Source: Craspedostauros australis (Eukaryota). Taken from it: a stretch of DNA of 42,551 nucleotides. Where the stretch lies: the NCBI GenBank assembly GCA_030167865.1, contig JALAGF010005623.1:1-42551 (forward strand), given 5' to 3'. Position numbers and translations under genes: made by a program. A model generated the notes under the pieces. That model was not told the DNA's origin and searched no databases. It saw only the letters and a list, made by a program, of their open reading frames with translations. Shown piece after piece: positions 7,622-42,357 of this stretch (position 1 is the stretch's first letter; each line of letters starts with the position of its first letter).

Positions 7622-8936
7622 GATGACAATGGCGATGATGGCGATGTTGATGGCTGTCTATGAATGTTGCGATGTTGTGATCTTGCTTGGATGGAAGTAA
7701 CGAAGGTGAACGGAAGAGAATGGGAAAGGGGGAGGGAGTGAGGTTGTGGTGGCGGGAATCCGTCTGCTCTTGGTGGTATGGAAGCGATCGTGGATGCTCG
7801 AGGAGCAAGGAAAGTCAATGGAACACTTGTCGTTCCGAAGAGTATTGCACTTGTGCCCTCACTCCACTGATACCCACACGAGAGGGAGTTGCATCTGCGA
7901 TGCCTACTGCCAACGCAAGGAGGAAGAACATCTGCGCCTGCAACAACAACGACAACAGGAGGAGGACGGCGTGATGTCCATGGTCACCTCCGGAACTGCG
8001 AAAGCGAAACGCTGAACAGCGCAGGCAGTTGACGGTTCCCAACGAAACACTCAGTCGTGTTGCGTCATGTTTGCGTCGGAGGCATACATGGCGTTAAACC
8101 GTTAACCCAAATTGATAAAGGGACATGAGCCCGTAGAATTTTGAATCGTTCGAAGGCCACAGAGACACCAAAGTTGGATGTTTCGTGAGCCGACTCAGTG
8201 TATTAATTTTATCCAGGGCTGAATATATATCATCCGACTTGAAAGAGCTGCGTTGAACAATCTTGTGTCACATTGCCACCACGACGGCGCAATTGTGCCG
8301 AACCAACACACATGGTGGAACACAATTTTTGTGGACGATGGCGCGATCGTCCCACCAATACTCACACAACACGCAGTACCCGTACTAATACTGGCGCAAC
8401 CACCGTTTGCACAACAAGACATCTGCAGGGCCAACGGGGGGAAGTACCAATCAATCGGACCATCGAACCGAAGTGAAGTGAAGTGGAGAGCGAGAGGGAC
8501 AAAGCAACAACAAATCCCAAGCGACGGCAAGGCAGCGGACAAAGCGAGGAAGGGAAGCATCCGAATCATACCACCACAACAAGAACAACAACAAGAAGAC
8601 GCACGACGACGCCTCCACAAGCACAAACGGCTATCTGCAGCAACCGCATCTGTTCACATTCTCCTCTTTGACATCGTCAACACGCTGGGCACGCTGAATG
8701 GTTCCATCGATCGCATTGAAAGCATCGACATCATCCGCAGCATCCACAACGATCACAGGCATCGGCCGTGAGTGTCCATACCGCCTATCACCTCTCATAA
8801 CACACATCGTGGTTGGCTGAAGTATAGTACTCTGTCTGATAGTCCGCAGGTCCGACTCCTCCACAATCTGCAAAGCGTTGTACCAACGAACGAAGCAAGA
8901 AGAACGAAGCATTATACCAACGAAGCAAGAATAACC

Positions 8937-11067
8937 ATGGACGGAGTGGAAGTGCAGGTGCAAGAGCCCGAGCATGCTCAACAGCCGCTGCAGCGGCAAC
9001 CCTCGCACCAGTCACAGCAGTCACAGCAACCCTCGCAGCAACAGTCGCAGCAACCCTCGCAGCCTCTGTCGCAGCGGCAGCATCAGCAACGATCAGTGAG
9101 CACGGGCCGCGGCTCCTCATCCTCCGACAAGCAGCGCATGTCCTCGCTGACCACCAAGGTCTTCGAACTCAGACCTCCGATGTCCATCACCGTGGAGGGG
9201 GCTTCCAGCACGGCCCCCACCAGCAAGAGCGCCACGGACGAAGACGCAGGAGGCTACCTCGACGGCTACCTCTCGGGACCCATAGGCGCCACCACCCCCA
9301 ACCCCACGCAGTCCTACTCCTACCCGGACTGCGACGAATCCTCGCTGGGCGGTCTGGGCGTGGAAGAGAAGGACGACGAAGACAGCAAGCAGCAGGTCAA
9401 CCGCTTCAGGGTCATCTGCTGCGTCGCCCTCGTCGCGATGCTCTTCGGAATCACGGGCGGCATCGCCACGCTCCTCATCAGCATCGATGGTGGCAACGGC
9501 GGCTCCGCCAGTTCCAACGAGGATGTGGATGCCGGCCAGGGCTCCGGTGGCGGCAACGCTCCTCCCACTCTTTCTCCCACTGCTTCTCCCACGGCTTCTC
9601 CTGTTGTGCAGCTCGTTCCAACGGAAAGCCCCACGACATCGCCTGTGGAGGACCAGCAGCAGCAGACACCGCAGCCCACTGCGGGATCCTTCACCAATGA
9701 GCCCACTGGACCTGCTGCTGCGACGCCCGTTCCCACGGAGATGCCTTCCACGTCGCAGCCAACCTCCTCCCCCACCCTGTCGCCCGCCACCATCCAATAC
9801 GAAGAGCTCCTCGACTTCATCATCGACAAGCAGGGAGGCCAGCCGCCTTCCAACGACCCGCAATCGCCGGAGCAGATGGCGCTTTCCTTCCTCATCGATC
9901 AGGACGGTGGAGTCACCCTCGAGGTGGCCTGGCAACGCTACCTGCTTCTCGTTCTAGAGAACACCTTCCTCCTCGATGCGTCGACATCCGTGCCCGCCTC
10001 CACCCTCTCCTTGAGACATGCCGGTCAGCGCAGATCCCTCGCGGACGCTCCCACCACCATCGCGGTCAAGAAGGTCGCAGAATGCAATTGGGCCGGAGTC
10101 TCCTGCAACCAGGACGGCCACATCACGGAGTTGCGCTTCGGAGCCCGGGGCCTGACGGGAAGCATCCCCTCCCACATCAAGTACCTCACGCACCTCACCA
10201 GGTTGGAGCTCAACGACAACAACCTGCAACAAGCCATCCCGGAGGACCTCTACGACCTGCTAGAATTGAAGCACCTCATCCTCTACAACAACAACCTCAT
10301 GGGCACCCTGTCCGAGGCCATCGCACAAACGCAGAAGCTCGAGCGAGTTTACCTCAACGGCAACAACTTCAGCGGGAACATTCCGCAGGGTCTCAAGTCG
10401 CCTCCAGGTCAACCTCGTCCATTGGGTAAGTTACATGCTTCATGTCATGTTGTATGCCATGCTGTATGTCGTGTCATGCCAACTCACACCATATCTTCTT
10501 CTCAACACAACACATCATAACACGACAACAGAGTACCTCAACTTGTACAACAACGACTTCAATGGGCCCATCCCCAACGGTCTGGAGCTCCCCAACTTGG
10601 TGTTCTTTGATGTTGGAAGGAATCAGCTGGGCGGCTGGTTGCCGAATGACCTTGCCGACTCATCCACCTCCTTGCGCTATCTGCATCTGGATCACAACAA
10701 GTTCGTCGGAACCTTCCCCACCAACTACGTCAACATTGGCAACGGAGGCCTCATCACCCTCACCTTCAACGACAACAAGCTCAGCGGCGATCCGCCGAAG
10801 AACTTTCCGACACAAAGTTCATTGGGTAAGTAACGCATGCGCGTTGATGTAAACTGCATTGTCTCTCTCACGCATCGATTCTCACACTCTCAATCATCTC
10901 ATCTCTTCACTCCAACAGTCCAACTGACGATGCAAAACAACCTCTTCACGACCAAGCTCGACAAAAAAGTCTGCGAACTCTCAACGAAGGGTTCCATCGT
11001 CGAATTCGAGGCCGACTGTTTGATCTGCGACTGCAGAGAGCTCTGCGGCCAATGCTCGGCCAAATGA
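8937..11067 (+). CDS. Membrane-anchored leucine-rich-repeat protein; exons 8937-10425, 10532-10825, 10919-11067
   Basis: Gln-rich N-terminus, one TM (VICCVALVAMLFGITGGIATLLI), Pro/Thr/Ser stalk, N-cap (ECNWAGVSCN), plant-type LRRs (LxxLxLxxNxLxGxIP) and a Cys-rich C-cap (EADCLICDC...). Two phase-1 GTAAGT...CAG introns restore the frame. Confidence 0.88.
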
Positions 11068-12080
11068 TATCCACACACTAGTCGTTTAATGAGTACTCTA
11101 ATAGAACTTGTATGAGTACTCTCCAAGCCACGCCAGGTGGCACTCCACGAAATCAGCGATGGTGACAAAGCAAGCACACGAAACGTGAGTGCGCAAGCAA
11201 CAGATGGGCACATCACTTCTCAACATGTGGATACAACGCGTCGTCGCTTCAACAGCATCACGAACCATGAATCGACAGCCGGAACAGTGCGCCTTTGTTC
11301 GAGTTTATGCATAAACACTGGCACCAAACGGCGGTGGAGTATGAGTGTTTGATCTACTCAGATGAGGACGATGCACAATTCGGTTCGGTATTGTGACAAT
11401 GTTAAGAATCACCCAGGTGCGCGAAAACCGAAAATGTGAGCAAATTTTTTCGACAACGCAGGCGTACTTCGTGACAGAAGCGCGCCTTGGCCGTCCCCTC
11501 ATCTTCTGTTCTCCAAACATCACACTTAACGGCAATTCACAAAAGCCGATGTCGAACGAAGAGCCATCACAATTCGTCGACAAGCCACAACAAGATGAAG
11601 ATACCCATGTCTGGAAGTGAGGGGTCGTATGAATGACGATCTTCGTTGTTCATGCTATCATACTACGGTGAACATCAACCCTGACCAATACCGTCCTTCA
11701 CCTATACATTCTGCCGCGTGAGCGATCGCAATGGGACCATTCGGTCCTGGCATGCAAAGATGGATGAAGGAAGCGGCGTGTCAGCTATGGAAATGATCGC
11801 AACGTTGCAACTCAACGGCATTTCCAACTCAAAGAGTAACTGAGAAGAAGATAGAAGCAGAACTTGTGATCGCGATTTCGCATGCTCTAATGGCCGTGCA
11901 AACACCCCAGAGTACCGACTCAACATGCTCCGGATGTTCACTATCGTCGGACATCTCTGTGGCGAAAAACCGATGTTTCGCTGATGCACCATTTCACCCC
12001 AAGCCCATCAAGTGCTCCAAATTAGACTCTGCATTCAGGGCAGATGTTCATCATGTTCGTACTGCCACACCATCCTGTTG

Positions 12081-25866: not shown

Positions 25867-26426
25867 GGACATGCACACAAACACATACACCAACGACTAC
25901 ATGGACCAAATAATAATCGGAAACTGAACATACCGTATCACAGACAAAGGTACATGGAAAAGTGCATTGAAGATAGTCATGGATGTTCCACGTGGAGCAA
26001 TTATGGCGGACGAGTTGGCAACAGCCACGGAGAGCGTGGACACACAACACCAACGTGTGTTTCTTCTTCCACTTCGGCAGCTCCACACACAACGAAGAAC
26101 ACGCACGACGAAAGAACACACAGTGCTGTGAAGTGGCAGTTGGGATACCTTTGTGGTGTTGTGGCTGATTGGATTGGGCGAGAGAGATTCAAGACACAGG
26201 ATTTGTGTCCCTGGCCACGCACCTGGTTTGGCTGACACCAACAATGCCGATCATGTTGTCCTCGTCTCACGTGTGTTGTGCGTCTCGCGTGATGATGGGA
26301 CGCAGGAATCTTTGGTTGGTTGGTACGGCGGTTGCGAATGCACCTCCACCAGCGGCCTCCATCCAACGACTTGTGCACATCGTCGCATCCGCACACTCAC
26401 ATACCCTACAACCCCAAGAATCCAAG

Positions 26427-27233
26427 ATGAAGCTCACCGCCGCCCTCTCCCTCCTCGCATTCACCGCGCCAGCCACCTCCGGCTTCGCCCCAGCCGCCTT
26501 CGGAGCCCGCAACAATGCCGCCGCCGTCCTCTTCAGCTACTCCACGGAGCAGGCCGGTGAGGCCGCCACCGAGTCCTTCCGCCTCAAGTTCCAGGGCGAG
26601 GAGGGTGACATCTCCCCATGGCACGACATCCCGCTGAAGAGCGGAGACGTCTACAACATGGTCGTCGAGATCCCAAAGATGACCAAGGCCAAGATGGAGG
26701 TCGCCACCAAGGAGGAGAAGAACCCAATCGCCCAGGACATGAAGAAGGGCAAGCTCCGTGACTACCACGGACCGATCTTCTGGAACTACGGATGCCTTCC
26801 ACAGACCTGGGAGGACCCAACCGTCGAGCACCCAGAGCTCAAGTGCTTCGGCGACGACGATCCAATCGATGTCGTCGAGATCGGCAGCTCCGCCCTCGAG
26901 ATGGGAAGCGTCAAGGAGGTCAAGCCCCTCGGCGTCCTCGCCATGATCGACGATGGTGAGCTCGACTGGAAGGTCCTCGCCATCGCCACCGACGATCCAT
27001 TGGCCGCCGAGTACAACGACATCGACGATGTGCCTCTGGCCATCCAGGACGGAATCCGCGAGTGGTTCCGCTGGTACAAGACCCCAGACGACAAGCCAAT
27101 CAACGAGTTCGGATTCGACGAGAAGTACCTCGACGTCAAGGCCACCAACGAGATCATCGAGGAGACCCACGAGGCATGGAAGAAGCTCCGATCCGGCGAC
27201 ACCGAGGCCGGAAAGCTCTGGACTGGAAACTAA
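26427..27233 (+). CDS. Soluble inorganic pyrophosphatase (family I), plastid-targeted
   Basis: ISPWHDIPL, VVEIPK, NYGCLPQTWEDP, GDDDPIDVVEIG, MIDDGELDWKV and WFRWYK. Bipartite presequence MKLTAALSLLAFTAPATSG-FAP. Strong C/G third-position bias. Confidence 0.96.
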   Translation: MKLTAALSLLAFTAPATSGFAPAAFGARNNAAAVLFSYSTEQAGEAATESFRLKFQGEEGDISPWHDIPLKSGDVYNMVVEIPKMTKAKMEVATKEEKNPIAQDMKKGKLRDYHGPIFWNYGCLPQTWEDPTVEHPELKCFGDDDPIDVVEIGSSALEMGSVKEVKPLGVLAMIDDGELDWKVLAIATDDPLAAEYNDIDDVPLAIQDGIREWFRWYKTPDDKPINEFGFDEKYLDVKATNEIIEETHEAWKKLRSGDTEAGKLWTGN

Positions 27234-27730
27234 ACAATCCTCGAATGCCACAAAGTAGCTGTTCTTGAGTATGGATTGAGTATAATAGAATGATCTAATC
27301 TATGATATCATATCATACAATAGTGGACTAGAGTACTCTAGTAAACATATAATATCAAAATAGAATAGTACTTTACTGGTGGACCGATGCTGTCCTTGGC
27401 TGTGCGAGTCTATCGAACAACTGAAGTGGAATGCTCCGCCATCTCCGTCTCATTGAACTTGGTCGTTCTTGAAGTTTCGAACCACTCGACCACACTGTGG
27501 CGTCATCTCTGGTCCGTGTTTTGGTGTCAACGAAAGATTCAGTACACACGCACACACACACATCAAGAGAGATGCGATGTTGCCTTTCGGGATCTTCGTT
27601 TGGCATCAATCCCCACAACGACCACAATCGTATTACAACTAAACCGACACCCTGCCTACGAATGCAAACAATCAATTGCCACACAGACGCATTCAACAAC
27701 AGCAGCCGCAGCAACGACAACAGCCACAGA

Positions 27731-28267
27731 ATGAGCCGCTCCCTGCTGCGGCTCTGCGCCATCGCATGCGCTTTCGGCCTCGCGAGCTCGTTTTCTCCAT
27801 CGGCGCAGTCCATGAGACCATCCACGAAACCCTTGCGAAGCAATCGCAATCTCCATAAGCCTTCCCTCGTCATCCTCCATAACATCGACGGCAGCAAGGA
27901 CGATGAGATAGCAAAGCTGGAAGAACAGCTGGCCAAGTTGAAGGCCGACAAGGAGACGGCAGATGTACCACAGATGACTGAATCGACGCCTGAGATCCTG
28001 GAAGAAATCGAAATGGAGGCCATGTTCTCGGAGCGCTGGAAGGAGCAGGAACAATCCCTCAGCGAGACCGACTCCGATGCCGCAGAATCCAAGGGTCCTG
28101 GTCTCACAGGAATCATCGGTGCGATCGCGTTGGCTGTCGTCCTCGCTTTCTTCAGCCAAGTTCCCGTCGGCCAGGAAAATCTCAGCAGGTTCTCTGTCAT
28201 CAACAAGGGGCCTGATACCACCATCAATCTTGGTGATTTGAATGAGGCCCGGAAAGGTGATATCTGA
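27731..28267 (+). CDS. Small plastid-targeted membrane protein of unknown function (178 aa)
   Basis: MSRSLLRLCAIACAFGLASS-FSP bipartite signal, short coiled coil (EIAKLEEQLAKLKA), one TM (IIGAIALAVVLAFF) and a short C-terminal tail. Confidence 0.75.
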   Translation: MSRSLLRLCAIACAFGLASSFSPSAQSMRPSTKPLRSNRNLHKPSLVILHNIDGSKDDEIAKLEEQLAKLKADKETADVPQMTESTPEILEEIEMEAMFSERWKEQEQSLSETDSDAAESKGPGLTGIIGAIALAVVLAFFSQVPVGQENLSRFSVINKGPDTTINLGDLNEARKGDI

Positions 28268-28506: not shown

Positions 28507-31101
28507 TCATTGTCGCTTTGCCTTCTTCTGGATCATTTTGTGCCTCAGTTTCTCCCAATCTTTCACCGTCCATGGAAATCCAACTCTTGCATCCGGTTTG
28601 TTATTCTCTGCATCCGCGCGTTGCCATCGCCGCGTCTCGTCGCTGTGGACGCAGCGCGAATAATATCCATCTGCGTCTTGGTACACATTGGGATGCGACA
28701 GCGCCTTGTACATGGACCCTGCAATGACGCGAAAATCCAACGACACGCGCGTCTTGCACGTTGCATTATCGGTCGTCCAGTGCGTGCATACGGCGCCCGC
28801 GAACTGTTTCATTCTGCCCAACGCACCGATGATCGGATGCCAGTCTTGAGCGTTGGGTTGGGATTCCAGGAATAAGGATGAGGCGTTGCCGCACGTGTCG
28901 GGGTTGCCGATTTCGGTGATTGGGACGTAGAGGTTGATGGAACACGGATGATGGCCGTACATGACGTCGGCGTGCGGTCCGATGCTGAATTCGCCGGGCT
29001 GGACGATGCGGACGCAGGGAAAAGATTGGTAATAGAACTCGGTTTCGTTTGGAGCGATTGTGCTGAGATGAGGGATGCAGAAACTATGCACGAAGTCGTC
29101 GTACGCAGCTTGAAAGGACGCATGATGATTGTCGGTGGTCAGCGTTTGCAGGATGTCGTACTTCCTGCCCTCGTCTTCATGCAGCAGCGTGAGGTCGTAC
29201 TCACTCGGCAGTCCAAATGATTGCAACAACGCCGTGCGCAAAGGATGCTGCATCGCATCGTAACTCAAATCTCGTTCCAACGCGAGGCCGCCTTGCAGAA
29301 ATCTTTTCATGACTGCACCGTACCCGCCTTTCCCGGTGGCGTCGCAGATGGTTTGCAGTGCCTCGCTTCGGTGCCGCAGGGTCTTTTGCAAATGCGGTTC
29401 CATTACCTGTCGTAAGTGCAATGGGAATGGATGAAAAGGGATATTTTTGGAGTGATTCGTCGCACTGGCGAGGCTGGAACCGAACCATTTCGGGTTGTTT
29501 GGCTTCATTGTATTGGCGGCGGGGGCGGCAGCTGTTGTTGTTGCTGCGGGTGCATGGACTGCTGTTGTCGATGCTCCTGGCGCTATTGAAGCGGACGCAA
29601 TAGTGTTCGCTGAAGGTTGCGTTGATGTTTCCGAATTGAGCATCTCCTCAATTGTGCTGATGATCTTCGTCGTGCTTTGATCGCGATAGTAGGCGATCTC
29701 TCGGAATCGACCTGTCTCCACAGGCACCTCGAAGAATTCTCGCTGTCGCTCTCTGTCCGCGTCATTCATGAACCCATGCACGACAAGATCGATCCCCCGA
29801 GCCGCCATAAATTCTGCTGTCACGATGAGCGGGCATGGACAAACGACCTCATCGACGTACTTGATGGCCTCAATGATTGCAACGCGATCTCTCTCCCGTA
29901 TGACCGGTGGTCGTTTGTAACCCGCAGCATCATCATCTCCCGTAACCCCAATGATAACACGATGGCCAAGATCCGAGCATTGCTTGATCGCCTCCAAATG
30001 TCCGACATGGAACAGATCGAACACACCATCCATGTACACAGTGCCGACTTTGGTGATATTGTCTTTGGTGTTGCTCATCGTGCCATTGCCATTGCCATTG
30101 TCGTTGTTGCTGGCAAGCCACTCGTGTTCTTTTGTGCCCTGCACCTCCAAGTATTTCAACAATTCTTCCTTGTTGAAGTTTGTGGGACGGCGTGCTGCCC
30201 TCGACGTTGGTTGCATCGGTAGATAGTGCTTGTCTTGCAACGGCTGCTTCGTACTGTCCATCCACGTTCCTCCAGGTGCGATGAGCGGCGGGAGGTCAGT
30301 TCCGGTGTCATCCTCACCGTTTGCAACGCCATGATTCGCGACGTGTGTCGTCGCCGATGATGACGTCGCAGCCTGATGAGCGGTGCTCTGGTAGTACACA
30401 TCGAAGCAATCGTCGCCGAATGCTCGTTTCAACAGCAGAACAGGTGTCTGCGGACCCTTGATGTGGACGACTGGTCCCATCTTCAGATTGGCTTGCAACG
30501 GAAACATCTCCTTTTGACGATACACCTCCTTTGGCCACATCTCCACAGCCTTCCGTTTTGCGAAGTGCCAAAACGAAGCGAGTTCATCGCTGCCGGTGGC
30601 CGATGCAGCAGCTGACGCGATGGTGTCCACAATGCCGTCAATATATGCTTGCTGTTGCCGTTGGCCATTCGCCTTCACACCAACAACCTCATTGACGAGC
30701 TGATCCATGGATTCATATCGCCGGATGACAAAGATGTCGATGAAGATGTTGTTCATCTGCTTGGGACGTATCCGATCGCCGCCCTCCCATGGTGCGATCT
30801 GGTATTGGTACCGCTTGCCGATCAACGCCTGAAGCTGGTCCTTGACGCGCTGGTACGCAGATCCATCGCCAGGACCTTCGTCGTGATGATCGATGATGGA
30901 TATGTCGATGTCATCATCGCAGAATAGAATCGAATGCTGCCGAATCGCACCCAGCAACGATCCCCCGGTCACGATGTAGTCCACTCTGAGCTTGTCGAGC
31001 GCATCGACAACCACCTGAAGCGTCGTGTACAGCGCATCCACTTCCTTGCGAGAGATGAGCGTGGGATCGGGACCCTGTTTGGGTGCAGCGACCTTTCCCA
31101 T
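28507..31101 (-). CDS. Three-domain fusion: LicD-family nucleotidyltransferase-fold + HxGH cytidylyltransferase + StrG/PhyH-like Fe(II)/2OG dioxygenase (864 aa)
   Basis: N-terminal GGSLLGAIRQHSILFCDDDIDI...IDIF (LicD). Middle VYMDGVFDLFHVGH...AIKYVDEVV...VVHG...STTKII (~30045-29640; choline/ethanolamine/glycerol-P cytidylyltransferase family). C-terminal YQSFPCVRI...PHADVMYGH...HWTTDN...TRVSLDFR (HxD...H...RxS). One uninterrupted ORF. Confidence 0.85.
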   Translation of the reverse strand: MGKVAAPKQGPDPTLISRKEVDALYTTLQVVVDALDKLRVDYIVTGGSLLGAIRQHSILFCDDDIDISIIDHHDEGPGDGSAYQRVKDQLQALIGKRYQYQIAPWEGGDRIRPKQMNNIFIDIFVIRRYESMDQLVNEVVGVKANGQRQQQAYIDGIVDTIASAAASATGSDELASFWHFAKRKAVEMWPKEVYRQKEMFPLQANLKMGPVVHIKGPQTPVLLLKRAFGDDCFDVYYQSTAHQAATSSSATTHVANHGVANGEDDTGTDLPPLIAPGGTWMDSTKQPLQDKHYLPMQPTSRAARRPTNFNKEELLKYLEVQGTKEHEWLASNNDNGNGNGTMSNTKDNITKVGTVYMDGVFDLFHVGHLEAIKQCSDLGHRVIIGVTGDDDAAGYKRPPVIRERDRVAIIEAIKYVDEVVCPCPLIVTAEFMAARGIDLVVHGFMNDADRERQREFFEVPVETGRFREIAYYRDQSTTKIISTIEEMLNSETSTQPSANTIASASIAPGASTTAVHAPAATTTAAAPAANTMKPNNPKWFGSSLASATNHSKNIPFHPFPLHLRQVMEPHLQKTLRHRSEALQTICDATGKGGYGAVMKRFLQGGLALERDLSYDAMQHPLRTALLQSFGLPSEYDLTLLHEDEGRKYDILQTLTTDNHHASFQAAYDDFVHSFCIPHLSTIAPNETEFYYQSFPCVRIVQPGEFSIGPHADVMYGHHPCSINLYVPITEIGNPDTCGNASSLFLESQPNAQDWHPIIGALGRMKQFAGAVCTHWTTDNATCKTRVSLDFRVIAGSMYKALSHPNVYQDADGYYSRCVHSDETRRWQRADAENNKPDARVGFPWTVKDWEKLRHKMIQKKAKRQ

Positions 31102-32486
31102 TCTCGCAGTTGAGGTGAGCGCCGTTCCCTGTGGTTGTGACAGCTACGGAGATGAACGTACTTCTGATAGGCTGGCTATCTCTCTCTCTCTCTCTCTGGA
31201 GGAAACGTTGCCGCTGCTACTGTCACTGTTGCTGTTACTGCTACGATTCCTGTTGCTTCCTCTCGTGGTGCAAGCATGATGGCGATACAAAGTTGGATGT
31301 CGGAGGCGAGCGGCGGGTTGTTGGGTGCAGATGAGGTGTAGGAGCAGCACCAGTATTGGTGACGATCACCCATCAAACAAGATCGTTTGCTCGAAACCAG
31401 TTCTTAGGCGTGTGCTCCATCTGATTGGACGTGACAACTCTTCGGCTCATTCGTGGATAATACTGCATCCATCGTGATTGAAACCAGCTCCTTCCAGTCA
31501 TGGTTTGATCCAATTTCTCCGAAAAACAACATCACAGATCCACGATCTCCGTTTGTGAATGTCACTATTCCACCGCTGTCTTCTTGGTCGTAGTTTGGGA
31601 GCACTTGCCTTCTTCGGTGGGGACTGGCGCTCGGATGGTGAATTCTCTCTGCCACCTTGACGCCCTCACTTTTTTGTCGCTGTCGTCGTCGTTTCCCATC
31701 CCAGCTCGCTTCGTCCTTTGGTAGAAGCATCCGCCATGGATGATAAATGTTGCGCCGGTTCAAATGGAGGCTAAAAGAGAGGAGCGGTTTGGATCGCGAG
31801 GAGTGCAAGTTACTCGTAGGTACTACTACTATGAAGGTGCGTTGGGTGGAAGCCAGCAAATGTCAGCGAACATCATGTCTCTTGTCCTTGCTCTCTGCGG
31901 ATCACCTCGGAGCCTGCTCGCCTCCCGCGCAACGACACTTCCATCGGTCTTGTTCTTGGTGGAGAGATCGGGAGTGGGGGAGGAGGCGAAACGAATCAAC
32001 CGCAGGCAGCCGGGCGCGACGCATGTTGGTGAAGTGGAGCATGAGTACAAGCAGAGCCCTCGGTGCGAGCAAGCAGCAGTCGGACGGTTGCGATACGCAC
32101 GTCCCTTTGTGTTGGGTTCGGTCACACTGCGTTGAACCGTATCACTCCACTCTATACTGTCTACAATGTGCTACAAGTAGATCTATGCGTTGTGCTGTGT
32201 TGTCTTGTATACATGATGCTATTCTATTAATACATTCGAGTACGGCACGATGCATGCCATCGTTTTGCTTGATTGCAAACCGCCATGTTGTTGACATTTC
32301 TTGATTCCTTTGGCTGAAGATCCCCGTGCTGCTCAATCATCGAGATGGATATTGCATCCGTCCAGATGAGGCACTTGGAATTTGGGCGTTGCATCTTCCT
32401 GCTTGGTCAGCGCGATATTCCAGTTCTACTCTTGTGGTATTCGTCCCCCCCATTCATGCTTCGACAGCCGCGATGCATGCGCCATG

Positions 32487-42303: not shown

Positions 42304-42357
42304 NNNNNNNNNNNNNNNNNNNNNNNNNNNNNNNNNNNNNNNNNNNNNNNNNNNNNN
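42304..42357. other. Assembly gap with AT-rich flanks
   Basis: N run. Both flanks contain TAAAATAGA and are markedly more AT-rich than the genic sequence. Confidence 0.6.

Follow-up and report, generated by a model that had tools for sequence, protein, structure and literature searches.

The window analysed here is the whole 42,551-nucleotide stretch of DNA from the diatom Craspedostauros australis. It carries on its minus strand an open reading frame (P0001; 28507..31101, (-)) that encodes a LicD/FKRP-like domain, then a cytidylyltransferase and then an Fe/2-oxoglutarate (2OG) dioxygenase, in 864 amino acids followed by a stop codon. The start is the first ATG, 14 codons past an in-frame upstream stop; the open frame begins at 31143 and the stop codon lies at 28507-28509 (-). 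Comparison of our own domain HMMs with the six-frame translation revealed a single copy of each domain in the window, and no kinase or transporter companion genes were seen within it. The frame is uninterrupted, the protein is colinear over 97-100% of its length with many diatom proteins, and its homologues display 42-53% identity over 97-100% coverage, with E values as low as 5e-286. In an alignment of 22 homologues, the motif residues of all three modules are invariant or nearly so. Judged by its sequence, such a three-module reading frame is far beyond chance. The original prediction had described one 864-residue frame with three enzyme signatures, and every motif that it named is present at its place. 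Its proposal that the gene is intronless stands as far as colinearity with full-length relatives goes, some of these being transcript-derived (the 'type:complete' MMETSP/EukProt ORFs P0006, P0039 and P0054).

The modules are separated by two low-complexity linkers. Linker 1 (residues 331-352; 30046..30111, (-)) is Asn/Gly-rich, with 7 N and 3 G among 22 residues, and its length differs from homologue to homologue in the alignment of 22. Linker 2 (residues 491-544; 29470..29631, (-)) is Ala/Thr/Ser/Pro-rich (14 A, 9 T, 7 S and 6 P of 54). These counts match the Asn/Gly-rich and Ala/Thr/Pro-rich linkers noticed earlier. The assignment of the three parts to LicD, cytidylyltransferase and dioxygenase was likewise borne out by profiles, fold models and conserved residues, so that the protein combines three real enzyme modules on one polypeptide.

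The transferase and cytidylyltransferase modules

The LicD/FKRP-like phospho-alcohol transferase domain (residues 8-330; 30112..31080, (-)) was delimited by a structural model, fold matching and profiles. It consists of a core (8-240), a disordered loop (241-278) and a conserved C-terminal extension (279-330), and its predicted structure has a pLDDT of 82.4. The top fold match of this model was FKRP (6kaj_A; Z 14.2, rmsd 2.9, 175 residues aligned), the runner-up reaching only Z 8.6; Foldseek also returned FKRP (E 2e-5) in all of its best 11 rows, and all 30 named matches in the Atlas were LicD. At the sequence level, similarity to FKRP is marginal (E 0.028), and Pfam LicD (PF04991) scored 20.6 bits against a gathering cut-off of 22.6, over profile positions 6-36 only. 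The same profile matched 18 of the 22 aligned homologues at E<=0.01 (best 2.2e-6) and gave 54.1 bits on P0236, a relative in which LicD is fused to the same oxygenase family. The DxD-type metal/diphosphate motif of the nucleotidyltransferase fold, DDDID (D62-D66; 30904..30918, (-)), was located by translation and alignment and aligns to FKRP WDYDVD, with D62, D63, D64 and D66 invariant in alignments of 22 and 29 sequences. It sits inside QHSILFCDDD (residues 55-64), which is indeed a variant, as had been pointed out, of the LicD motif HxGFIPWDDD. Around it, GGSLLGAIRQHSILFCDDDID aligns to a 21-residue FKRP segment with which it shares the motif GGSLLGA.R...D.D.D, whereas the diatom motif QHSILFCDDDID is replaced in FKRP by a different 13-residue stretch. 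Further downstream, NIFIDIFVI (residues 118-126; 30724..30750, (-)) contains invariant F120, D122 and F124, and the fold suggests that D122 is the later-strand acidic residue with a catalytic role. Invariant residues of the domain thus comprise G46, G47, L49, L50, G51, R54, D62, D63, D64, D66 and D122. In the model, residues 8-330 adopt the FKRP/LicD catalytic fold with its Asp-rich metal motif.

The central domain (residues 353-490; 29632..30045, (-)) is a single-copy HxGH cytidylyltransferase that resembles ethanolamine-phosphate (ECT) and choline-phosphate (CCT) cytidylyltransferases, matched by Pfam PF01467 at 62.7 bits (cut-off 21) and by PDB sequences, the best being human ECT (3elb, E 2.6e-37). 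Weaker PDB matches were obtained with Plasmodium CCT (72.8 bits), rat CCT (60.1), 5x3d (43.5) and TagD (30.1). The translated CTP-binding signature HVGH (residues 365-368; 29998..30009, (-)) is nearly invariant in the homologues, and S476 and T477 of the STT motif (residues 476-478) are conserved. In contrast, the Arg-Thr of the RTEGISTT-type motif is replaced: AYYRDQSTT of the diatom protein aligns with human ECT KRTQGVSTT, and the homologue consensus is YYxxLSTT. The chemistry or the nucleotide handling may therefore differ, and in the 3elb alignment the second domain of ECT likewise has no such Arg-Thr. The domain is matched by both domains of 3elb; an ECT/PCYT2 orthologue was rejected, since ECT contains two cytidylyltransferase domains in tandem and the diatom frame gave a single HMM match. 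The central domain is thus ECT-like in sequence and not an ECT orthologue. An identity as CCT was discarded as well. The choline-pocket residues of CCT are HDD..Y and CPW; in the alignment, the diatom protein has HGFMND where Plasmodium CCT has HDDIPY, and CPL in place of CPW. With HG as in ECT instead of the HDD of CCT, and Leu for Trp, choline is a less likely headgroup than phosphoethanolamine or glycerol phosphate. From the list of headgroups proposed earlier, choline is therefore disfavoured and a phosphonate gains no specific support. PMC8587909 describes ECT/PCYT2 as the source of CDP-ethanolamine and also of CDP-glycerol, the donor that FKTN/FKRP use.

The dioxygenase family and its contexts

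The third module (residues 545-864; 28510..29469, (-)), identified by a model and a conserved site, comprises an N-terminal helical part, a double-stranded beta-helix core and a GFPWT tail, and its predicted structure has a pLDDT of 90.5. Its best fold matches were PtlH (Z 12.2, 205 residues aligned), ThoJ (11.4), PhyH (10.9) and PHYHD1 (10.8), within a set of 32 chains at Z>=8; Foldseek yielded 110 matches at E<=1e-3 with 2OG oxygenases first, among them SptF, FtmOx1 and AndA (E 3e-6 to 1e-4). The first two iron ligands lie in H710-A-D712 (28966..28974, (-); H in 203/223 and D in 216/223 family domains), the third is H774 (28780..28782, (-); 212/223), and the 2OG C5-carboxylate is bound by R785-V-S787 (28741..28749, (-); R 212/223, S 205/223). 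Glu746 is found in all 223 family domains. Sequence searches of Pfam, PHROG and the PDB with this domain gave no match. Neither Pfam PhyH (PF05721) nor another 2OG model matched the 864-residue protein at E<=1, and no Pfam model matched the oxygenase parts of 54 long family representatives at E<=0.001. For 14 viral relatives, Pfam yielded just two matches, both sub-threshold: PhyH at 18.3 bits and 2OG-FeII_Oxy at 17.5 bits. A cut-off of E<=1e-3 takes in 2,471 representative clusters of the family, and one of E<=1e-30 still 557. Residues 545-864 thus form a PhyH-like Fe(II)/2OG dioxygenase in which the HxD...H...RxS site is complete and which belongs to a large unnamed family without a Pfam model. 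Double-stranded beta-helix, HxD...H and RxS are shared with the PhyH-clan oxygenases (PtlH, ThoJ, PhyH, PHYHD1 and EctD, as well as the sugar-acting AviO1/EvdO1/EvdO2, SnoK and KanJ); the diatom family differs in its own N-terminal helical region, E746, its GFPW/F tail, the lack of a Pfam match and its recurrent fusion to LicD. Among the relatives that consist of the oxygenase alone, many have a long N-terminus that is rich in Ser and apparently disordered.

This degree of conservation bears on whether the modules are active at all. One or more of them could be non-catalytic, the cytidylyltransferase or LicD acting for example as a nucleotide-binding part or scaffold of what is effectively a single enzyme, and the sub-threshold Pfam score of LicD and the missing Arg-Thr of the cytidylyltransferase are in line with this. 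We regard it as very improbable: HxGH, K396, STT, DDDxD, D122 and HxD...H...RxS vary little or not at all in sets of 22-223 sequences whose overall identity is only about 40-50%, as expected of active sites under purifying selection.

The fold itself gives no preference for a sugar over some other acceptor, because the top matches span small-molecule, peptide and protein hydroxylases. In a protein-modifying pair, the oxygenase would hydroxylate Pro, Lys or another residue of a cytosolic or nuclear protein, and LicD would add the phospho-alcohol to that hydroxyl. Such a pair would follow a known design. LH3 (PLOD3) of humans and L230 of mimivirus are bifunctional hydroxylase-glycosyltransferases, in which a 2OG oxygenase and a group-transferase are fused and take successive steps on one acceptor. 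The fold search did return protein hydroxylases (PHD2, Z 10.4; a Trichoplax prolyl hydroxylase, 10.5; LH3, 8zgc, 8.2; the mimivirus lysyl hydroxylase, 6ax6, 7.8), and the Ser-rich N-termini are compatible with a protein substrate. The diatom oxygenase, however, is PhyH-like and is joined to a phospho-alcohol transferase in place of a glycosyltransferase; its highest-scoring fold matches are small-molecule enzymes of the PhyH type (PtlH, ThoJ, PhyH, PHYHD1 and EctD), and we know of no LicD-family enzyme that modifies an amino-acid side chain directly. A protein-modifying pair is accordingly held to be unlikely.

All three domains were detected with our HMMs in 101 of the 120 homologues listed, whose carriers include named diatoms and Triparma. 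LicD and oxygenase without a cytidylyltransferase were found in 15 of 118 new family representatives, 13 as LicD-DOX and two as DOX-LicD; a Pfam scan of 54 long representatives confirmed LicD in 12, diatom transcriptomes contain two-domain forms and one relative combines cytochrome b5, LicD and oxygenase. The coupling of LicD and oxygenase is thus independent of the cytidylyltransferase and exists in both domain orders. Relatives of the oxygenase are also encoded by viruses: all 39 IMG/VR loci found encode one of 200-280 amino acids (E 5e-13 to 3e-30, own HMM). Their identity is only 24-33% and the catalytic core alone is covered; the iron and 2OG residues are conserved in them, as 11 sequences show. 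Glycan-biosynthesis neighbours were present at all 11 viral loci scanned (73 ORFs within 3.5 kb), in the form of glycosyltransferases, nucleotide-sugar dehydratases, epimerases or dehydrogenases, DegT aminotransferases, sulfotransferases or FkbM methyltransferases, and no LicD, cytidylyltransferase or PEP mutase was seen among these 73 ORFs. A viral gene neighbourhood is no proof of the same substrate class in diatoms. Taken together, LicD-oxygenase fusions without cytidylyltransferase and viral glycan loci without either partner suggest that the oxygenase works on the acceptor or a glycan and not on the CDP donor. The activate-tailor-transfer pathway first envisaged is supported in part: its logic of activation and transfer fits the domain identities, whereas tailoring of the donor is made less likely by the two-domain fusions and the viral loci.

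Were the donor tailored after all, the oxygenase would hydroxylate the headgroup, either free or linked to CMP/CDP, as in the conversion of 2-aminoethylphosphonate (2-AEP) to 1-hydroxy-2-AEP or that of a choline/ethanolamine analogue; the cytidylyltransferase would activate the headgroup and LicD attach it to a glycan. The same three activities could be joined in phosphonate tailoring modules, with a PntC/Fom1-type cytidylyltransferase, a LicD-like transferase and a PhnY*-type hydroxylase; PhnY* is an instance of PhyH-type hydroxylation of 2-AEP. Cytidylyltransferases of the HxGH superfamily do act on phosphonates, and 5x3d, labelled phosphoenolpyruvate phosphomutase, is presumably the cytidylyltransferase domain of Fom1. 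A diatom study moreover proposes that ECT-annotated enzymes cytidylylate 2-AEP, on the basis of the KEGG pathway and expression data rather than of an assay (PMC9765203). Against this, the diatom domain is much nearer to ECT and the CCTs (72-131 bits) than to 5x3d, fusions without any cytidylyltransferase exist, and the viral contexts of the oxygenase are sugar clusters in which none of the 73 neighbours is a cytidylyltransferase, LicD or PEP mutase. Donor-side tailoring, including that of phosphonates, thus has a low probability.

A putative cytosolic phospho-alcohol pathway

Crude hydropathy scanning of the 864-residue protein revealed no N-terminal hydrophobic segment or transmembrane-like stretch, the highest 19-residue Kyte-Doolittle mean being 1.48, in agreement with the earlier statement that it has no signal peptide or N-terminal anchor. 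By the same crude scan, a hydrophobic N-terminus was present in one of 98 three-domain, none of 15 LicD-DOX and two of 153 oxygenase-only relatives. The diatom protein is therefore probably soluble and cytosolic. Fukutin and FKRP, eukaryotic members of the LicD family, are type II Golgi membrane proteins; no Golgi anchor of that kind is predicted for the diatom protein, in which the scan saw neither a hydrophobic N-terminus nor a transmembrane-like stretch, a comparison that applies to the fukutin/FKRP subfamily and not to the LicD family as a whole. No glycan that serves as an acceptor in the cytosol of diatoms is known to us.

With its ECT-like chemistry, a soluble protein of this kind would be at home next to the Kennedy pathway, and a lipid headgroup enzyme has to be considered. 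Its LicD-like domain would work at a membrane from the cytosolic side, with diacylglycerol or a glycolipid as acceptor, and its oxygenase would modify the lipid or headgroup. The substrate of PhyH, one of the closest fold matches, is a lipid CoA ester, and residues 25-126 weakly match NCBIfam Mf1, a LicD-type diacylglycerol cholinephosphotransferase (E 2.6e-6). The Mf1 score of 27.7 bits is nevertheless far under its cut-off of 225, FKRP, which modifies glycans, is the nearest match in structure, the viral relatives of the oxygenase lie among glycan genes and not lipid genes, and the hydropathy scan revealed no amphipathic or membrane segment in the protein. A role in lipid synthesis consequently seems improbable.

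A close parallel is the mammalian pathway for ribitol-phosphate and glycerol-phosphate modification of alpha-dystroglycan, in which FKRP/fukutin act with PCYT2. According to PMC8587909, PCYT2 supplies CDP-glycerol, from which FKTN/FKRP transfer glycerol phosphate to a glycan. The diatom protein resembles this pair in that its N-terminal domain best fits FKRP and its central domain is nearest to PCYT2/ECT; it differs in fusing both activities, in adding an oxygenase and in lacking both a type II anchor and a stem domain, which predicts a place in the cytosol and not in the Golgi lumen. Activation by CTP followed by LicD-family transfer to a glycan is also the logic of the bacterial Lic pathway (LicA kinase, LicC cytidylyltransferase and LicD phosphocholine transferase) and of TagD/TarI-type CDP-alcohol pathways. 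LicC, however, belongs to another nucleotidyltransferase family than the HxGH/ECT-like activator of the diatom, which has no kinase or transporter nearby and is part of a single eukaryotic polypeptide with an oxygenase.

Our preferred reading, tentative and with a probability of roughly 0.45, is that the protein works in the cytosol, where it produces CDP-ethanolamine or CDP-glycerol and passes the phospho-alcohol on to a glycan or glycoconjugate, the oxygenase tailoring the acceptor side. The central domain would convert CTP and a small phospho-alcohol, most likely phosphoethanolamine or glycerol 3-phosphate, into the CDP-alcohol, and the N-terminal domain would pass the phospho-alcohol to a hydroxyl of a sugar-containing acceptor with release of CMP. 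The oxygenase would hydroxylate this same acceptor, making or altering the site, and the CDP donor would not be its substrate. The fusion would hold donor synthesis, acceptor tailoring and transfer in one place, within the compartment where the CDP donor is otherwise committed to phospholipid synthesis. More speculatively, and with clearly less likelihood, this might be an undescribed cytosolic system of diatoms and Parmales, in which the oxygenase hydroxylates a sugar or protein site that the FKRP-like transferase caps with ethanolamine phosphate or glycerol phosphate, which its cytidylyltransferase partner makes in situ. In giant viruses, hydroxylation in the cytoplasmic factories where glycans are built would fall to this oxygenase family too. 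If true, a main primary producer of the ocean would contain an intracellular glycoconjugate of a new class, bearing a phospho-alcohol.

Taken singly, the three kinds of enzyme are well known; combined in one soluble eukaryotic protein, they are without description in the literature searched, where no published account of the three-enzyme architecture was found, as the original prediction had supposed. LicD fusions, viral glycan clusters and the near absence of a hydrophobic N-terminus (crude scan) provide clues to the function of an oxygenase family without a Pfam model. They offer a concrete starting point for a possible, so far unrecognised decoration with phospho-alcohols in the diatom cytosol, and bear equally on the part that orphan 2OG oxygenases play in giant-virus glycan synthesis. 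Parmales are the sister group of diatoms, and the named carriers of the architecture all belong to silica-forming lineages, which suggests a possible tie to silica-cell-wall biogenesis. In public annotations, homologues are called 'glycerol-3-phosphate', 'ethanolamine-phosphate' or 'choline-phosphate cytidylyltransferase', names that ignore two-thirds of the protein and by which reconstructions of diatom lipid pathways could be misled.

The fusion gene and its homologues

The 864-codon ORF runs uninterrupted on the minus strand of the window, from 31101 to 28507, within an open frame that begins at 31143 and has its first ATG 14 codons in, and the N-terminus of the encoded protein (MGKVAAPKQGPDPTLISRKEVDALY) agrees with the conserved start of its homologues. 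Translation of the ORF placed the signatures named in the original prediction of a LicD, cytidylyltransferase and dioxygenase fusion exactly where they had been claimed, namely DDDID at residues 62–66 within QHSILFCDDD, HVGH at 365–368, STT at 476–478 and the oxygenase motifs HAD at 710–712, H774 and RVS at 785–787. The composition computed for the two linkers also agreed with their description as Asn/Gly-rich and Ala/Thr/Pro-rich.

Searched against ~5.8 billion proteins, the sequence yielded 187 homologues, the best 120 of which were listed. The top matches covered 97–100% of the query with 45–53% identity (E values down to 5e-286), and the named sources comprised several species of Nitzschia, Thalassiosira, Skeletonema, Cylindrotheca and Epithemia together with the bolidophyte Triparma. 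HMMs derived from the homologue alignment, one for each domain, showed that the order LicD–cytidylyltransferase–oxygenase is conserved in 101 of the best 120 of the 187 homologues; among the same 120, LicD and cytidylyltransferase alone were present in 18, and LicD and oxygenase preceded by cytochrome b5 in one. The last is P0099 (791 aa), where the cytochrome b5 domain (PF00173, E 2.7e-15) is followed by LicD and then the oxygenase without a cytidylyltransferase, an arrangement that may indicate another electron or haem link to the oxygenase. The 18 LicD–cytidylyltransferase proteins (P0104–P0121, ~480–520 aa) and 20 further proteins with cytidylyltransferase and oxygenase only (P0127–P0153, some 440–570 aa) may be genuinely split genes or else fragments left by gene models broken at the linkers; some are encoded on long contigs (50 kb for P0109 and 65 kb for P0127, for example). 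Since the three-domain homologues P0006, P0039 and P0054 are full-length ORFs derived from transcripts and marked ‘type:complete’, the single-polypeptide form is expressed in relatives.

In a quick maximum-likelihood tree built from 29 listed homologues, for which the careful tree search is unfinished, the window's protein has a long branch and lies among raphid pennate-type sequences. Two three-domain proteins with other labels, P0018 (Paraphysomonas imperforata MMETSP0104, a chrysophyte) and P0054 (Didymoeca costata from EukProt, a loricate choanoflagellate), are nested within the diatom ingroup of this quick tree, a placement that suggests contamination or gene transfer. A wider range based on them was therefore rejected and neither is counted as broadening the taxonomic distribution. 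The named carriers, that is, diatoms and Parmales plus the labels of P0018 and P0054, are all silica-forming.

The three domains

The Pfam LicD model matched the window's protein with 20.6 bits, below the cut-off of 22.6, and over profile positions 6–36 only, and 18 of 22 aligned homologues matched it at E ≤ 0.01. The AlphaFold model of residues 1–330 (pLDDT 82.4, with a disordered loop at 241–278) superimposed on the catalytic domain of human FKRP (6kaj) with a Z score of 14.2 and an rmsd of 2.9 Å over 175 residues; the next match was an aminoglycoside nucleotidyltransferase at Z 8.6, just three chains reached Z ≥ 8, and rows 1–11 of the Foldseek search were all FKRP. The best PDB match by sequence, over GGSLLGAIRQHSILFCDDDIDISI, was also FKRP, with marginal significance (E 0.028), and a language-model atlas gave LicD in 30 of 30 named matches. 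Across 29 sequences, the Gly-rich loop, R54, D62, D63, D64, D66 and D122 do not vary. By fold, sequence, atlas and invariant residues, the region was therefore accepted as a LicD/FKRP-type phosphotransferase domain, and the earlier claim of a LicD domain with a variant motif holds. Segment 279–330 is not linker: it is conserved (G278, W280, P295, Q297, R304, T307, E325), and the model packs it against the domain.

The central domain matched PF01467 with 62.7 bits (cut-off 21). Its best PDB relative was human ethanolamine-phosphate cytidylyltransferase (ECT; 3elb, E 2.6e-37), both domains of which matched (74.0 and 55.8 bits), followed by the choline-phosphate cytidylyltransferases (CCT) of Plasmodium (72.8 bits) and rat (60.1), 5x3d (43.5) and TagD (30.1). 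In the printed PDB alignments, the domain has HG(F) like ECT, in contrast to the HDD of CCT, and a Leu in place of the aligned Trp of the CCT CPW motif; these CCT residues, HDD and the CPW Trp, help to hold choline. Of the ‘.K(G/R)’ motif, the domain retains the Lys (K396), after which comes an Arg peculiar to the family (R397), and the RTEGISTT-type motif lacks its Arg-Thr, reading AYYRDQSTT in the window's protein and YYxxLSTT in the family consensus. Judged on the PDB ranking, pocket residues and motif alignments, this is a single-domain cytidylyltransferase that is ECT-like yet not orthologous. Its specificity is not readable from the sequence; ethanolamine-phosphate and glycerol-3-phosphate are the most economical guesses. 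The entry 5x3d carries the PDB label phosphoenolpyruvate phosphomutase and is presumably the cytidylyltransferase domain of Fom1, which acts on a phosphonate; that the oxygenase of the fusion tailors the donor or a phosphonate is, on the whole, unlikely.

For the C-terminal domain, searches of Pfam, NCBIfam, PHROG and PDB sequences gave no match, and PDB searches with a single oxygenase sequence and two profiles returned nothing meaningful. The model (pLDDT 90.5) is a double-stranded β-helix of the PhyH type, whose closest folds were PtlH (Z 12.2), ThoJ (11.4), PhyH (10.9), PHYHD1 (10.8), a proline hydroxylase (10.7) and EctD (10.6); at Z 8–10 came the sugar-acting AviO1, EvdO1 and EvdO2, SnoK and KanJ, as well as prolyl and lysyl hydroxylases, and Foldseek was led by SptF, FtmOx1 and AndA. 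A protein acceptor and a lipid acceptor were also considered, each rated as improbable as tailoring of the donor or a phosphonate. In 223 full-length family domains, the iron ligands are kept at H710 (203), D712 (216) and H774 (212) and the 2OG-binding residues at R785 (212) and S787 (205), and a family-specific Glu, E746, is invariant (223/223). The reading in which one of the modules is non-catalytic is rated as the most improbable. The predicted complex of LicD (8–330) and oxygenase (545–864) scored 0.00, which makes no call either way.

Fusion partners and viral relatives of the oxygenase

When 1.84 billion representatives were searched exhaustively with a profile, 2,471 proteins were retrieved at E ≤ 1e-3, 557 of them at E ≤ 1e-30, and the nearest atlas clusters, which bear no protein names, lie in Haptophyta and Chlorophyta. 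A prokaryote scan of genome_contigs with one pattern from a smaller alignment gave 16 matches, none confirmed by tblastn, a result that does not show that the family is absent from prokaryotes. The oxygenase stands alone in 97 of 118 further family representatives, many with Ser-rich N-terminal extensions; the others are 13 LicD–oxygenase, two oxygenase–LicD, one cytidylyltransferase–oxygenase and one three-domain fusion, with four split hits. Pfam found LicD in 12, a cytidylyltransferase in two and a SAT-like domain in two of the 54 longer representatives, and the two-domain LicD–oxygenase form is present in diatom transcriptomes (Extubocellulus, Asterionellopsis). Because LicD–oxygenase fusions without a cytidylyltransferase occur in both orders, the conserved partnership is that of LicD and oxygenase, and the cytidylyltransferase is an addition to this pair. 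The SAT-like proteins, P0208 and P0220, have an acyltransferase-type domain (PF16073, E 2e-10 and 3e-11) fused to the oxygenase.

Further, a scan of IMG/VR identified 39 loci (giant-virus MAGs in several cases), each encoding a 200–280-aa relative of the catalytic core (E 5e-13 to 3e-30 with the family HMM) that shares 24–33% identity with it and has the same catalytic residues. A weak match of one viral relative to the PHROG family ‘endonuclease V’ was disregarded. ORFs were computed for 14 loci (129 ORFs), and 73 neighbours from 11 loci were scanned, leaving out L006, L012, L028, some short ORFs and the oxygenase ORFs. Sugar genes lie within 3.5 kb of the oxygenase in every one of the 11 loci, the neighbours including glycosyltransferases (GT2/10/11/17/25), GDP-mannose dehydratase-type and RmlC-type enzymes, UDP-glucose dehydrogenase, UDP-GlcNAc 2-epimerase, DegT aminotransferases, sulfotransferases and FkbM methyltransferases. 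None of the 73 neighbours matched LicD or cytidylyltransferase, and the diatom-derived HMMs of these two domains had no match anywhere in the 39 loci. Giant viruses assemble their own glycans in the cytoplasm. In locus L022, which also holds GT11 and a UDP-glucose dehydrogenase–methyltransferase fusion, the viral oxygenase relative (7749–8498) is adjoined by an ORF at 10672–11583 (−) that weakly matches the C-terminal domain of RXYLT1 (25.9 bits against a cut-off of 27); RXYLT1 is the xylosyltransferase acting after FKRP in the dystroglycan pathway.

Proposed reaction and genomic surroundings

A crude hydropathy scan detected a hydrophobic N-terminus in one of 98 three-domain proteins (a truncated model), in none of 15 LicD–oxygenase proteins and in two of 153 oxygenase-only proteins; the window's protein has none, as the original prediction had said. 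This near-absence sets the family apart from the Golgi-anchored fukutin (FKTN) and FKRP and points to a cytosolic location. The central domain would convert CTP and a phospho-alcohol into a CDP-alcohol and PPi, the N-terminal domain would transfer the phospho-alcohol from this donor to an acceptor hydroxyl with release of CMP, and the C-terminal domain would turn an acceptor C–H into C–OH, or perform a related oxidation, while converting 2OG and O2 into succinate and CO2. The favoured reading, at slightly less than even odds (about 0.45), is that the acceptor is a glycan or glycoconjugate and that the oxidation takes place on the acceptor side.

In its proposed working, the diatom fusion resembles the PCYT2 and FKTN/FKRP system or the bacterial Lic/Tag pathways, to whose logic it joins a hydroxylase, as in the LH3-type hydroxylase–transferase fusions. 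According to one report (PMC8587909), PCYT2, that is, ECT, produces CDP-ethanolamine and CDP-glycerol, and CDP-glycerol is used by FKTN/FKRP. Having a single cytidylyltransferase domain, the fusion is no ECT orthologue; it is no CCT either, as its pocket residues differ, and no fukutin/FKRP-type Golgi enzyme, as it lacks an anchor. Its oxygenase matches no existing Pfam model. A search of open-access PMC and bioRxiv found no paper on the LicD, cytidylyltransferase and oxygenase architecture. The fusion is real, conserved and uncharacterised, is made up of known kinds of enzyme, and offers a testable hypothesis.

Around the ORF, the window is ordinary eukaryotic nuclear DNA that also encodes an F1-ATPase α/β-type subunit, a BT1 transporter, a TAFII28-like factor, an MFS transporter, CrcB and an inorganic pyrophosphatase; no pathway companion genes were seen within it. 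Five runs of N totalling 363 bases lie near the window ends (222–347, 926–992, 1268–1333, 1510–1559 and 42304–42357), none close to the fusion ORF. The pyrophosphatase gene (26244–27233, +; PF00719, E 1.8e-44; N-terminal extension of ~135 aa) terminates ~1.3 kb away from the fusion ORF on its 3′ side, and its product would clear PPi from the cytidylyltransferase step; the locus being eukaryotic, this adjacency is probably chance and no functional tie is claimed. The one sequencing run considered, X1, which is possibly RNA, has no contig on the fusion ORF and is silent as to its expression. One X1 contig covers 28300–28485 with 100% identity, ends 22 nt short of the fusion stop codon and belongs to the neighbour on the left, a convergent ORF at 27572–28267 (+) without a Pfam match.
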